DNA from: Eledone cirrhosa
Lineage: Eukaryota
Direction: 5' to 3'
Assembly (NCBI GenBank): GCA_964016885.1
Contig: OZ024760.1
Span: forward strand, 2,914,001-2,978,000
DNA length: 64,000 nt
Shown here: positions 10,961 through 53,382 of the stretch, one piece after another
How the letters are laid out: the number at the start of each line of letters is the position of its first letter
Numbering within the stretch: position 1 is the first letter of the stretch
Made by a program: the position numbers and the translations under genes
The notes under the pieces: model-generated
Databases searched by the model: none
What the model was told of the DNA's origin: nothing
What the model saw: only the letters and a program-made list of their open reading frames with translations

Positions 10961-11132
10961 ACCTGACAGCCATCCATTGCTGCTAATAGCCCTTGGAAAC
11001 TTCGGAGCAAGTTTTCTTCAAAGGAATGTTACTGAACCATTGCAGATGTTGGCTAAAAAAGGGGTCCATGCAACTTATATGCAGGCTGTCTACCCAACAC
11101 TGACCACACCAAACCTATATTCTATCATAACG
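10961..11132 (+). CDS. ENPP-family (nucleotide pyrophosphatase/phosphodiesterase-like) gene, internal exon A: PDSHPLLLIALGNFGASFLQRNVTEPLQMLAKKGVHATYMQAVYPTLTTPNLYSIIT
   Basis: Acceptor tttttattag, donor gtaagt; matches ENPP motifs LLxSLDGFR and MRPVYPTKTFPNHYSIVT; phase-0 end joins exon B. Confidence 0.93.
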
Positions 11133-11195
11133 GTAAGTCTTAGTTTATTTATTATTTTATTTCTTACTGTTTTACTCCACAAAATCAGGACAAGG

Positions 11196-11803
11196 GCATG
11201 ACACCGTGATGAAGGAAGTTCTCCCACAAGGTGGAATGGTTGAAGTAGTTGTGGGTGTCAAGGACATGACACACTGATGAAGGAAGTTCTCCCGCAAGGT
11301 GGAATGGTTGAAGTAGTTGTGGGTGTCAAGGTCATGACATACTGATGAAGGAAGTTCTCCCGCAAGGTGGAATGGTTGAAGTAGTTGTGGGTGTCAAGGT
11401 CATGACATACTGATGAAGGAAGTTCTCCCACAAGGTGGAATGGTTGAAGTAGTTGTGGGTGTCAAGGTCATGACACACTGATGAAGGAAGTTCTCCCGCA
11501 AGGTGGAATGGTTGAAGTAGTTGTGGGTGTCAAGGTCATGACACACTGATGAAGGAAGTTCTCCCGCAAGGTGGAATGGTTGAAGTAGTTGTGGGTGTCA
11601 AGGTCATGACACACTGATGAAGGAAGTTCTCCCGCAAGGTGGAATGGTTGAAGTAGTTGTGGGTGTCAAGGACATGACACACTGATGAAGGAAGTTCTCC
11701 CACAAGGTGGAATGGTTGAAGTAGTTGTGGGTGTCAAGGACATGACACACTGATGAAGGAAGTTCTCCCACAAGGTGGAATGGTTGAAGTAGTTGTGGGT
11801 GTC
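11196..11803. repeat. 68-bp tandem repeat (~9 copies)
   Basis: Unit tgatgaaggaagttctcccgcaaggtggaatggttgaagtagttgtgggtgtcaaggtcatgacacac. Confidence 0.93.
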
Positions 11804-12334
11804 ATTGGCTTACTGTCTTCCACAGCAATGTTTGTCACTGTCTTGTCTGTGGGATGTTGCTCGAATATGCCCTCCAACCAAGGGTATAGTGTTTGCCCCA
11901 CAGGGTGGAATAGTTGAAACAGTTGTGGGTATCACTGGGTTACTGTTTTCAGCATCATCATCATCACCATCATTTTAATGTCCACTATCAATGGCAATGC
12001 TTTTGCCATCTTGTCCATTAAATATTTCTTTATATACTCTCCAACCAAGAGTATGGGGTTTGTCCCAAAATGTAGAATGGTTGAAGTAGCTGTGGGTTTC
12101 ATTGGCTTACTATTTTCAATGGCAATGCTTTCATTGTCTTGTCTGTTGGATGTTGCTCTGATATACCCTCCAACAAAGGGTATAAGGTTTGTCCCTTAAT
12201 AGAGGAAGGCTGCTGCAACTGTGGGTATTGTTGTTTTCATTGTGGTGAATCAGATTAGGATTTAGACTTTAGTGAAAAAAAATATTCCAAGATTACATTC
12301 AGTATGATTAACAAGATATGATTTTAATAATAAA

Positions 12335-12470
12335 ATAATAATAATAATAATGAAATGATTGTGTACAGTGCTCAGGTGCACTACAACTCATCAAAGGTGC
12401 ATGTATAGTACATAGAATAATGTACAAATGTCAGGAAAGTGAACAGTGTATGAGCCATGTTGTACATATG
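12335..12470 (-). mobile_element. 3' end fragment of the same CR1-group LINE
   Basis: Reverse complement of 5880-6005, including the stem-loop and (ATT)n tail; a shorter copy at ~14990-15046. Confidence 0.8.
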
Positions 12471-12689
12471 ACGAGAATTTACAATATCAAACCACCTGAC
12501 ACCACCCCTGCCAAGGTTAACTATGCCTTTCATCCTTACGGGGTTGATAAAATAAAGTACCAGTAATGCACTGGATAATTGCTGGCCTTGTGCCAAAAGT
12601 AAAGACAATTATAATTTTAAGCAATGATCTTGTTATATTCCAAACACCAACTTCCTTATGAAAGAGTTTGTTTTATTATTAAATCCTTC

Positions 12690-13585
12690 TAAATTATTGT
12701 ATATTTTAAAATTTATTTGAAAATCATAGATATTGTCTTTCATTAGAAAAATGGTAATGAAAGGGTTAAAGTGTTTATATTTATCAAAACAATTTCCACC
12801 CTAGTTTTACGTAGCAATCTTTGTTAACCCTTTATCATTTATATTACTCTATATTTACTGTTGTATTTTCACAGTAAACACTTCACCTCATGTACTTATC
12901 TCACATAATATTGAACCTATGAGATTTTGATATTAATCATTTTGAGAACAATACCTTAACATCGGTATGAGCGGCTGGTTACAGCCGGTTTGAACAGAAA
13001 AGGGTGAGAGAATTCTGACCGGATATGGCTGGTTAATATGCTAAAAGGTTAAGTTATGTTCCAAACACCCACTTCAAAATAAGAAATTGAATTATGATAC
13101 TGAATCCCACCAAATTCTTGGTTATTTTCAAAATTATTTGAAAATCATAGATAGCGTTTTTCATTAGAAAAATGGTAATGAAAGGGTTAAAGTCTTTATA
13201 TATTACCTAAACAATTTTCATCCTAGTTTTATGTAACAATCTTTATTAAGTTATGTTTCAAACACCCGCTTAAAAATAAGAAAATGAATTATGATACTGA
13301 ATCCCAGCAAATTCTTGGTTATTTTCAAAATTATTTGAAAATCATAGATAGCGTTTTTCATTAGAAAAATGGTAATGAAAGGGTTAAAGTCTTTATATAT
13401 TACCTAAACAATTTCCATCCTAGTTTTATGTAACAATCTTTATTAAGTTATGTTCCAAACACCTGCTTAAAAATAAGAAAATTAATTATGATACTGAATC
13501 CCAGCAAATTCTTGGTTATTTTCAAAATTATTTGAAAATCACAGACAGCGTCTTTCATTAGAAACACTGCGATGAAAGGGTTAAA
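12690..13585. repeat. ~197-bp tandem repeat built from MITE-derived sequence, with a nested MITE
   Basis: attatgatactgaatccc recurs at 13091, 13288 and 13485. Confidence 0.8.
12828..13048 (-). mobile_element. piggyBac-type MITE nested in the 197-bp repeat
   Basis: TTAA duplication at 12824-12827 and 13049-13052; neighbouring repeat units show the empty site (ctttattaagttatgtt). Confidence 0.85.
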
Positions 13586-50799: not shown

Positions 50800-51136
50800 T
50801 CATTCATTTTTCATTTCATTTTACGTCCGCTTTTTCCCTGCTTGCAAGGGTGGGACGGGAACTGATTCTGGCTTGATTTCTACAGCTGGATGCCCTTCCT
50901 AACACCAACCTCATTTTACAGTGAGTGCTGGGTATTTTTTTTTGCTGTGGCACCTCCACGACCACTTTGCAGTGGAATGATATGGACCTCAGTCCCTATC
51001 ATCTCATTTCTACAGCTGAGTAAACTGGAGCAATGTGAAATAAAGTGTCTTGCTGAAGGGAACAACACATCACCCGGTCTGAGAATTGAACTCACAACCT
51101 TTCGATTGCAAGGGCAATGCTCTAACCACTAAGCCA
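50800..51136 (-). mobile_element. SINE family A copy
   Basis: Reverse complement of the family consensus. Confidence 0.85.
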
Positions 51137-51757
51137 TATATATATATATATAAACGTTGATGATGATGATGATGATATATATATGTATAAATAAACCCTA
51201 TTATATTGCTTATTCGTGTTAATCACCCTTTTACCTATATTTATATATATCTGTGTGTATTTGTATATATATATATACATATATATGTGTATATATATAT
51301 ATACATATATATACATATCATCATCATCATTGTTTAACATCCATTTTCCACACTAGCATGAGTTATGTGTGTATGTGTGTGTGTGTGTCTGTATGTGTAT
51401 ATACAGTCTGCCTCTTCATCTCACCTGGAACCAATTCAATTATATTACTAATATATTTGGGCAAGACATCATGACTTCCTTCCTTAACCTCCCCCTCATG
51501 CCTCACCTCCCCCACACAAACACATACAAGAGACATATATATTATGATATTTTCCCCTCTACAGACACTCGTAGACACACAAACCTATAAATCAAATATT
51601 TCCTGCCTAACCAACAAATTAATACCATTGGTTTTAATCTTGTCATTCATAATAATAGTTATAATAATGATTTCTTTATTGGCCACAAGGGCTGACATCA
51701 AGAAAAACATCACAGACGGAACAGGACGGTACGATGTGGGTTTTGTGCGTGTAAATA

Positions 51758-52312
51758 TTGGCAGTATCGGTGGAGGGTCGGACGCCATGCTTTCCAGCAT
51801 AGTTACGGCCCTTTATGATCTGAGTTCAAATCCCTTTGCCTTTCATCCTTACGGGATCGATAAAATAAAGTACCAGTAATGCACTGGGTAATTGCTGGCC
51901 TTGTGCCTAAAGTAGAAACAATTATTTATATAAGAAAAGAAAAAAGACATAAAACATATATATATATAAATAATAAAATGAAAATTGAAACAATGAAAAA
52001 TTCCCCAATAGCGGGAAAACCTCCGAGGGTTACTCGTGGCGAAAACCACACAAAAGACCACGGCCACCCTGACTACCAGGGCAAGCGCCCTCTCTCAATA
52101 TTTCCATAGTTATAATAATAATAACTGTTTCTACTTTTGGCACAAGGCCAGCAATTACCCAGTGCATTACTGGTACTTTATTTTATCGACCCCGTAAGGA
52201 TGAAATGCAAAGTTAACCTCGGCGGGATTTGAACTCAGAATGGCAAGGGCCGTAACTCTATATGTCAAAGCATGGCGTCCGACCCTCTCCCAATACTGCC
52301 AATCCACCGCCC
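51758..52312. mobile_element. SINE B copies (51758-51925 plus, 52123-52312 minus) nested among L1/Tx1-like 3' fragments
   Basis: Family consensus matches. Confidence 0.75.
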
Positions 52313-52344
52313 TAATAATAATAATAATAATAATAATAATAATA

Positions 52345-53225
52345 ATACTTTCTTTATTAACCACAAGGGTTTACATAAAGTAGACATTAAGGACAGTGCA
52401 GGACAATACAGGACGGTACAAATGGGCATTTCTGCGTGTAAAAAACAAAAACAGAGGATGTAACAAAAAATAACAATGAAAAATTCACCAATAGGGGGAG
52501 ACTTCAGAGGGACATTTGTGGAGAAAGCCCAGTAAAAGGCCACAGTGACCCTGACCACCAAGGCAAGTGCCATCTCCCAGTTTTCCACCTTTAATTTACA
52601 GATATATACTCAGAGTAGGCCCATTCACTCGGGCCATTCTTGCTTCTCTCACCCATCTTTCAACAAAATGCTGGGAAGAGAGCACTTCCCTCTCTACTCT
52701 GATTTTCCTTTTCAAATGAAATTTGAAAAAGTCAATCAGAGCATCACCGAAGAGGTAAGTGCTCGTCTTCAGCCCTTTCAAACGTGTCCACCTGGAAAGG
52801 AGGGTGAGGGTGGAGAGAGAAGTGCTGCCCCCCAGTACATTTGCTAAAAGGTGGGTGAATGTGGCGAGAATGGCTCGTGTGAATGGGCCCACTCTGACCA
52901 TGCGCCTATAGGCTGACTAACTTGAGGAGAGGGGTGCTCTCCTGGGTGCCCCTAGAAGCGCAGGGTGGTTCAGGATTGGTGGGGTACCCGAATCACCCCA
53001 GGGTCGTCCACCCCCTATCGGGGAATTTATTTTGTTATATTTATGCATAGTTTATTTTATATTTTTATATTTTCATGGTTAAATTAGTCTTGCCATTGTG
53101 CACTTTTACTCGACCTTATTGTAAACCCCCCACTGTCCCTGTCTTTGTATTGTCCCCTACATGTCGGCCCTTGTGGCCAAATAAATGAAACCATTATTAT
53201 TATTATTATTATTATTATTATTGTT
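52345..53225. mobile_element. Two L1/Tx1-like LINE 3' ends in opposite orientation (minus ~52345-52800, plus ~52842-53225)
   Basis: Both encode a related C-terminus (RWV..ARMARVNGPTL) followed by ccttgtgg..aataaa and an (ATT)n tail; clade assignment is tentative. Confidence 0.6.
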
Positions 53226-53243
53226 TTTCATTATTATTATTAG

Positions 53244-53382
53244 ATCTGTCCCCAAAAGAGTAATTATTGACGATATTGTGCGACAGTTCAATTTGCCTGC
53301 CATAGCTCGACCCCAACTCATCACGTGGTACATTGATGACTTAGTGAGTGTTACTGAAAGCTATGGGCCTGACAGTCCATTG
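53244..53382 (+). CDS. ENPP-like gene exon E: (K)SVPKRVIIDDIVRQFNLPAIARPQLITWYIDDLVSVTESYGPDSPL
   Basis: Acceptor attattag, donor gtaagt; phase 2/0; ungapped 46-aa match to ENPP1 SVPFEERI...LP..RP...LYLEEPDSSGHSYGPVSSE. Confidence 0.92.

Follow-up and report, generated by a model that had tools for sequence, protein, structure and literature searches.

A 64 000 nt stretch of Eledone cirrhosa DNA (hereafter the window; assembly GCA_964016885.1, contig OZ024760.1, positions 2,914,001 to 2,978,000) carries five exons of the ENPP phosphodiesterase family. A preliminary description, drawn from the letters of the window alone, took these for an intact gene that had lost its zinc ligands and proposed that the product was a pseudoenzyme. 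The exons, with the ends and phases given in Table 1, were recovered by splice-aware alignment of the window; they total 544 nt, contain no stop codon and are joined by GT–AG introns throughout. They do not, however, make up a stand-alone gene, being repeat 1 of one three-unit ENPP gene for a membrane protein.

Structure of the gene

When the window alone was aligned, the Octopus sinensis orthologue returned exactly five exons (score 681), an intact scallop repeat returned the five together with a spurious 12 nt tail exon (score 341), and a cuttlefish query gave exons 1–4 complete and exon 5 in part (score 416), as against 41–74 on the minus strand and 45–77 for shuffled queries (n=15). In profile searches by single exon, PF01663 was matched by exon 1 (E value 7.7e-10) and exon 2 (1.9e-7); exons 3 and 5 alone gave no match to it. 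Exon 1 aligned with the Xanthomonas NPP in a register without gaps.

Further ENPP exons were located by the PF01663 profile 70–175 kb beyond the window end, and the 400 kb around the window were used for a gene model of 54 exons and 6434 nt, which extends over 276 kb (C21:2907607-3183784). Each unit consists of a phosphodiesterase (PDE) and a nuclease-like domain encoded by 17 exons, of which exons 1–16 are equal in phase across the three units, repeat 1 exon 12 being counted across the frame break described below; the 34 nt exon of repeat 1 recurs, with its phase of 1/2, in repeats 2 and 3. Because the borders between units 1 and 2 and between units 2 and 3 are each spanned by one exon, the phases match and all 53 introns are GT–AG, the units are assigned to one gene.

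The predicted protein has a single hydrophobic segment, at about residues 26–48, and shares this N-terminal membrane anchor and the C-terminal nuclease-like domain with the ENPP1/3 subfamily. The model leaves no room for somatomedin-B domains between the anchor and the PDE, PF01033 is absent from the Pfam lists of the orthologues, and there is no RX[KR]R furin site between the units. A search of the 100 kb upstream for the first coding exon (about eight codons) gave 276 candidates, of which even the best was weak, and the exon was not found. In 464 kb around the gene no intact substitute for any degenerate exon was detected, and no other ENPP1/3-type locus was found by the PF01663 search (11 matches from 24 candidates); a PF01223 profile search matched only another gene on C2 and missed the diverged nuclease-like domains of the present one. 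A partial, slightly diverged copy of a single-PDE ENPP gene, with its start missing, lies at C9:10557687-10558259 and is likely a duplicated fragment. In the nuclease-like domain of repeat 2 (C21:3144293-3144431), the Asp-rich loop after GP-I/V-F, which in ENPP1 is a calcium loop, is eroded in all three coleoids; the loop is largely kept in repeats 1 and 3.

Table 1. Exons of the three-unit gene and other elements of the window. Plain numbers are window positions; C21 positions equal 2914000 plus the window number.
Feature	Position	Strand	Remarks
Upstream exons (n=3)	C21:2907607-2912003	+	Before the window; cytoplasmic piece, membrane anchor, Thr-rich stretch
Repeat 1 PDE exon 1	10961-11132	+	172 nt, phases 2/0; D218>G, T256 kept, F257>T, H260>L
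Repeat 1 PDE exon 2	20928-21050	+	123 nt, phases 0/0; GLYPE-HG motif, N277>D
Repeat 1 PDE exon 3	25978-26053	+	76 nt, phases 0/1; IW...WPG, W322 kept
Repeat 1 PDE exon 4	28441-28474	+	34 nt, phases 1/2; Y340>S
Repeat 1 PDE exon 5	53244-53382	+	139 nt, phases 2/0; Y371 kept, D376>V, H380>E
Intron leaving the window	53383-64000	+	Gene goes on past the window end
Repeat 1, remaining 12 exons	C21:2993284-3049095	+	Includes nuclease-like domain; D423/H424 kept, H535>S
Repeat 2, 17 exons	C21:3050503-3147625	+	Degenerate: D218>H, T256>S, N277>E, H535>F
Repeat 3, 17 exons	C21:3148283-3183784	+	Eight of eight catalytic residues; stop codon
Tandem array, intronic	21330-23828		107 nt unit, 23 copies
Element with long inverted ends	29589-32712		Ends 718 nt at 100%, 301 nt at 99%
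Tandem array, intronic	34594-40696		16–20 nt unit over 6 kb
LINE-like retroelement	42093-45308		Three overlapping or adjacent frames; RVT_1 E 1e-24, zf-RVT weak

Catalytic residues and conservation of the units

Residue positions were set by motif in the alignment and follow the human ENPP1 numbering and the list of eight catalytic residues as they appear in PMC10761680; Y340 was assigned by motif, without direct alignment to human ENPP1. The replacements reported in the preliminary description were borne out codon by codon: Gly for D218 is encoded by GGA at 10995, Asp for N277 lies at 20961, Val for D376 is GTG at 53344 and Glu for H380 is GAA at 53356, and T256 is retained at 11103, followed by changes at F257 and H260. 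Past the window end, where a check of D423, H424 and H535 had been recommended, the first two are kept and the third is Ser. At D218, T256, N277, D376, H380, D423, H424 and H535, repeat 1 thus reads G, T, D, V, E, D, H and S (3/8 kept). By sequence and fold it is a member of the ENPP/type I phosphodiesterase fold (PF01663), yet in comparison with an active ENPP PDE domain it fails at the zinc site D376/H380/H535 (Val, Glu, Ser) and, despite the retention of T256, D423 and H424, at the second zinc site through D218>G; N277, F257 and Y340 are Asp, Thr and Ser, and W322 and Y371 are kept. A-to-I editing was considered as a means of rescue and rejected, as it had been in the preliminary description, no lost residue having a codon that can be edited to the catalytic one.

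Alanine mutants of mouse ENPP1 at all six zinc ligands, apart from the equivalent of H380, are described as inactive on ATP and cyclic GMP-AMP (cGAMP) in PMC9173814, the numbers of which are the human ones minus 18. Since D218, D376 and H535, each of them essential in ENPP1, are lost from repeat 1 along with H380, we strongly infer that it is catalytically inactive. Repeat 2 keeps four of the eight residues, two of these in uncertain alignment. The second, intact ENPP domain whose presence in the same protein had been worth looking for is repeat 3, which has the full set of residues of an active ENPP PDE domain.

The losses in repeat 1 are selective. Among 89 intact units, 78 columns are at least 90% conserved, and 12 of them are lost in all three coleoid repeat-1 sequences, namely 6 of the 11 active-site columns versus 6 of the 67 others (Fisher p=0.001), W322 being scored with the others; for the window sequence alone the counts are 7/11 and 17/67 (p=0.03). 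Constraint was gauged by protein identity. For the PDE domains of repeats 1, 2 and 3 the identity is 73, 78 and 77% to O. sinensis and 40, 44 and 45% to cuttlefish, and over the whole protein that to O. sinensis is 65–78%, depending on the region. A structural model of O. sinensis repeat 1 (385 residues, 66-row alignment) had a predicted local distance difference test (pLDDT) score of 91.8 and a template modelling (TM) score of 0.91 to ENPP3. Catalytic residues have, then, been lost while fold and sequence were held across species. With repeat 1 only slightly less conserved than repeat 3, and its losses concentrated at the active site, it is, as judged from these comparisons, a maintained pseudoenzyme domain inside an enzyme, and to that extent the earlier proposal of selective zinc-ligand loss in a preserved and likely inactive fold holds good.

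Relatives and recurrence of degenerate units

With exon 1 as the query, the best matches among 1.84 billion proteins were bivalve proteins of 2200 residues with three PDE domains, and a second protein search yielded 47 proteins of 1209–3849 residues, including those of O. sinensis and of a Sepia pharaonis cluster; a word-based search with exon 1, which covered proteins of up to 2000 residues and hence shorter than the orthologues, gave no match. The direct orthologues are O. sinensis XP_029649912.1 (LOC115223464; 2163 aa, annotated as 'uncharacterized') and the cuttlefish protein P0189 (2135 aa, unnamed, clustering with Sepia pharaonis); 11 of the 15 listed members of the cuttlefish cluster are full length, on contigs of about 7 kb. 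Both orthologues have the layout of the window gene, two degenerate units followed by an intact one (residues kept in repeats 1, 2 and 3: 3, 3 and 8 in O. sinensis; 3, 5 and 8 in cuttlefish), and differ from it in having exon 12 open. In O. sinensis repeat 1, position 256 is Ser and position 277 Asn. The only further cephalopod among the 120 of 659 matches listed in a search for shorter relatives was an Argonauta fragment with V376, H380, D423, H424 and S535. Trees were built from 70 and 40 of 114 units, partial models and near-duplicates being left out and 11 site columns removed. Every coleoid repeat grouped with its coleoid counterpart (bootstrap 99–100), which places the losses before the octopus–cuttlefish split.

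Proteins with an anchor and two to four PDE/nuclease-like units are found in molluscs, annelids, Priapulus and some Caenorhabditis (e.g. OWF35917.1, XP_052277762.1). Of the 114 units, drawn from 44 proteins, 89 carry the full set of eight catalytic residues, substitutions have made 15 degenerate, and the other 10 are partial models; it is only in coleoids that two of three units are degenerate. The degenerate units, which sit in coleoid repeats 1 and 2, Dreissena repeat 2, Mactra repeat 3, Patella repeat 1 and a crustacean group, correspond to five changes on the 70-unit tree, at least three of them forced by well-supported branches; D423 is kept in 15/15 and H424 in 14/15. G218, D277 and S535 of the window repeat are found again in Mactra repeat 3 and Patella repeat 1, each known from a single automatic gene model. 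Mactra repeat 3 is nested among intact bivalve repeat 3s, and a common origin with coleoid repeat 1 was rejected (approximately unbiased test, p-AU 0.00025); for Patella repeat 1 it was not (p-AU 0.11). The groups tested were picked from the residues after the first tree had been seen. The shared pattern of D423/H424 with G218/D277/S535 may be the path followed by a fold whose zinc site has been emptied, or may reflect selection for a new pocket.

Zinc sites are also degenerate in the crustacean single-unit ENPPs P0201, P0202, P0198, P0200, P0203 and P0205; several crustacean single-unit ENPPs have a long Ser/Thr/Glu-rich insert between the PDE and the nuclease-like domain, and an Armadillidium ENPP reads G218, N256, V376, Q380 and F535. 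For an ENPP pseudoenzyme that stands alone, these crustacean proteins make better candidates.

A frame break in repeat 1

Disabling changes outside the window had been named beforehand as evidence that would count against a maintained domain, and one is present in the assembly. In exon C21:3033269-3033480 (repeat 1 exon 12, nuclease-like domain) the frame that matches O. sinensis differs between start and end; the gene model reads through the break with an X, and a 4 nt exon set by the aligner just before the broken exon was dropped as an artefact of the break. The broken exon is single-copy. The rest of the 54 exons are, on the other hand, free of lesions: 1626 codons without a stop follow the break, repeat 3 is intact, and the changes that lie after the break show no excess (63 vs 79, p=0.21). 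A 151 nt contig from RNA run X4 (depth 2.4), which begins about 40 bases past the break, joins the last 89 bases of the broken exon to the next exon, 5.8 kb away, and in spanning that intron it indicates splicing there; no RNA holder of the broken exon was listed, and runs X1–X3 left it uncovered. As the O. sinensis and cuttlefish orthologues are open across this exon, the break leaves the reading of coleoid repeat 1 untouched.

In the frame as assembled, a hydrophobic stretch of 14 residues (L017:5350-5475) occurs past the break, shortly before the stop, probably by chance. One of the 15 listed members of the cuttlefish cluster, P0215, leaves the frame at residue 525, in the same region, and ends at 541 aa; this is probably a contig error, and may otherwise be an anchored form made of the dead domain alone.

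Discussion

The explanation towards which we lean, with a confidence a little above even, is that the degenerate repeats 1 and 2 would serve as a folded, non-catalytic stalk that carries repeat 3, the one unit of the chain predicted to be an active nucleotide phosphodiesterase. The chain would be inserted as a type II ecto-enzyme by way of its N-terminal anchor, and repeat 3, as the outermost unit, would cleave extracellular nucleotides of the ATP type and, because H380 is present, 2'-5'-linked nucleotides as well. Unless the degenerate units folded, the chain would not arrive at the surface; they would assist its folding and hold repeat 3 off the membrane, a task that falls to the somatomedin-B stalk in vertebrate ENPP1/3. 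Since repeat 3 is intact, although repeats 1 and 2 are degenerate, the complete protein is likely active as an ENPP. Ligand binding, one of the roles suggested in the preliminary description, is disfavoured for repeat 1 as far as nucleotides are concerned, because the base-binding slot has lost F257 and Y340 in each of the three coleoid sequences of this repeat, which also tells against a nucleotide decoy.

Several observations weigh against a maintained stalk. The fold model is that of the orthologue, from an alignment of mostly intact enzymes that pulls it towards the ENPP fold. The PDE of repeat 1 has undergone 20 lineage changes here, whereas O. sinensis has 8 (p=0.04 without correction, one test out of seven). 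The replacements G218, L260, V376 and S535 are invariant in the coleoids seen, and a pure spacer needs no such invariance. RNA coverage of the five window exons is nil. The protein as assembled ends at 557 codons, short of repeats 2 and 3, and short frames are rare in this assembly: among the 91 distinct protocadherin frames of C2 and C7 (from 98 of 150 listed rows) a single one was short, or about one lesion per 226 kb. The corresponding chance of a lesion per 6.4 kb is about 3% (upper bound 13%), so low that the break is not dismissible as general assembly noise. The choice lies between an assembly error of a rare sort and a true allele of very recent date, and we give a real null allele in the sequenced individual appreciably less than an even chance.

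In a rival reading, repeat 1 would be a retooled binding or regulatory module, whose rebuilt site (G218, D277, V376 and S535, with T256, D423 and H424 retained) tunes repeat 3 by taking up one metal ion, a small ligand or a partner protein. At 40–73% overall identity, G218 is found in 3/3 and V376 and S535 in 4/4 coleoid repeat-1 sequences; His to Ser takes two base changes; the trio G218, D277 and S535 recurs in Mactra repeat 3, for which a common origin was rejected, and in Patella repeat 1; D423 and H424 persist in the degenerate units; and catalysis-independent roles have been reported for mouse ENPP1 in PMC12465099. Against this, positions F257, Y340, H380 and N277 vary between coleoids, a common origin with Patella was not rejected, one automatic gene model each stands behind the Mactra and Patella evidence, small residues are maybe merely tolerated by the fold at an emptied site, and the pocket has no known ligand. 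We consider this reading unlikely, if worth keeping in view. The same low degree of belief attaches to its extension, in which tandem ENPPs would repeatedly turn spare units into extracellular binding modules, coleoids, a mactrid clam and perhaps limpets converging on a G218/D277/S535 pocket; taken jointly with that, the converged pocket would surround the kept T256, D423 and H424, hold a metal or ligand and control the live unit on the chain.

It is also conceivable, and to our minds improbable, that repeats 1 and 2 are passengers, made redundant by triplication and kept folded only since misfolding would sink the chain. Fold constraint alone would suffice for the conservation outside the pocket, and catalysis has been lost several times in one unit of tandem arrays; however, unit number varies from two to four among relatives and the exon phases permit clean loss of a unit, yet both dead units have been retained by two octopods and a cuttlefish. 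More doubtful by far is that the gene has recently become a fixed pseudogene in E. cirrhosa, whose real break would yield a decay-prone message or a 557-residue anchored dead-domain product. The presence of a break in a single-copy exon of an assembly in which coding lesions are rare, and the frame loss of P0215 in the same region, would fit with this, but the open codons past the break, the canonical splice sites throughout, the intact repeat 3, the lack of surplus changes, the RNA contig over the next intron and the failure of the PF01663 search to find a further ENPP1/3-type locus speak against it, and the residue losses, being common to cuttlefish, are older than the break. Least probable of all is that repeat 1 is still an enzyme, with a one-metal site of T256, D423, H424 and perhaps D277 and another substrate: T256 is retained in this repeat and its cuttlefish counterpart, D423/H424 in every coleoid, and one-metal members of the alkaline phosphatase superfamily, the sulfatases, are described in PMC11677397, but these retain equivalents of D218 and D423 by the same account, D218 is gone here, and O. 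sinensis has Ser at 256 and Asn at 277.

The stalk-and-enzyme arrangement that we prefer has partial counterparts. Vertebrate ENPP1 and ENPP3 share the type II anchor, the PDE plus nuclease-like unit, the fold and, with repeat 3, the eight catalytic residues, but they have one unit and somatomedin-B domains, whereas the octopus protein has three units, two of them with degenerate PDEs, and no somatomedin-B domain was seen. The tandem ENPPs of molluscs, annelids, Priapulus and Caenorhabditis likewise combine an anchor with several PDE/nuclease-like units, of which, in contrast to those of coleoids, most are intact. Lactase-phlorizin hydrolase is a membrane ecto-enzyme in which dead and live homologous domains stand side by side; as described in PMC6412902, it has four such domains, the N-terminal ones working as an intramolecular chaperone, with the C-terminal ones catalysing. 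It is an analogy only, this enzyme being a glycosidase with a C-terminal anchor and a cleaved profragment, unlike the octopus protein with no furin site. A full-text literature search, in which most subscription journals lay outside the scope and supplements were not included, gave no account of tandem or dead-PDE ENPPs. The tandem proteins are already in databases, mostly uncharacterized, and the ENPP chain with dead units is a new variant of a known family. As to expression in other molluscs, Paroctopus digueti is mentioned as having 'venom phosphodiesterase'-like transcripts in its digestive gland and posterior salivary glands (PMC12607849), and zebra mussel plasma is given as containing 4.6-fold more of a nuclease-domain ENPP after poly I:C (PMC7148315); in neither case is it established that the same gene is involved.

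The coleoid protein would offer a natural chain of enzyme and pseudoenzyme that lets dead domains be set directly against a live paralogue, and a way into the still open matter of what ENPPs do independently of catalysis. ENPPs set the levels of extracellular ATP, pyrophosphate and cGAMP, and the binding-module reading, if true, would mean a pseudoenzyme regulator among the enzymes that remove ATP and cGAMP from the extracellular space. Names assigned automatically, for instance 'ENPP3' or 'venom phosphodiesterase', mask the likely inactivity of two thirds of the protein.

Other elements

Apart from the gene, a protocadherin frame at C2:238446599 has 421 codons versus about 800 in its neighbours and is a broken copy or an assembly slip. 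The introns within the window contain the tandem arrays and the LINE-like (long interspersed nuclear element-like) retroelement listed in Table 1. The element with long inverted ends encloses an open frame of 327 codons (30522-31505), for which there was no Pfam match, and is likely a young DNA transposon or foldback element.

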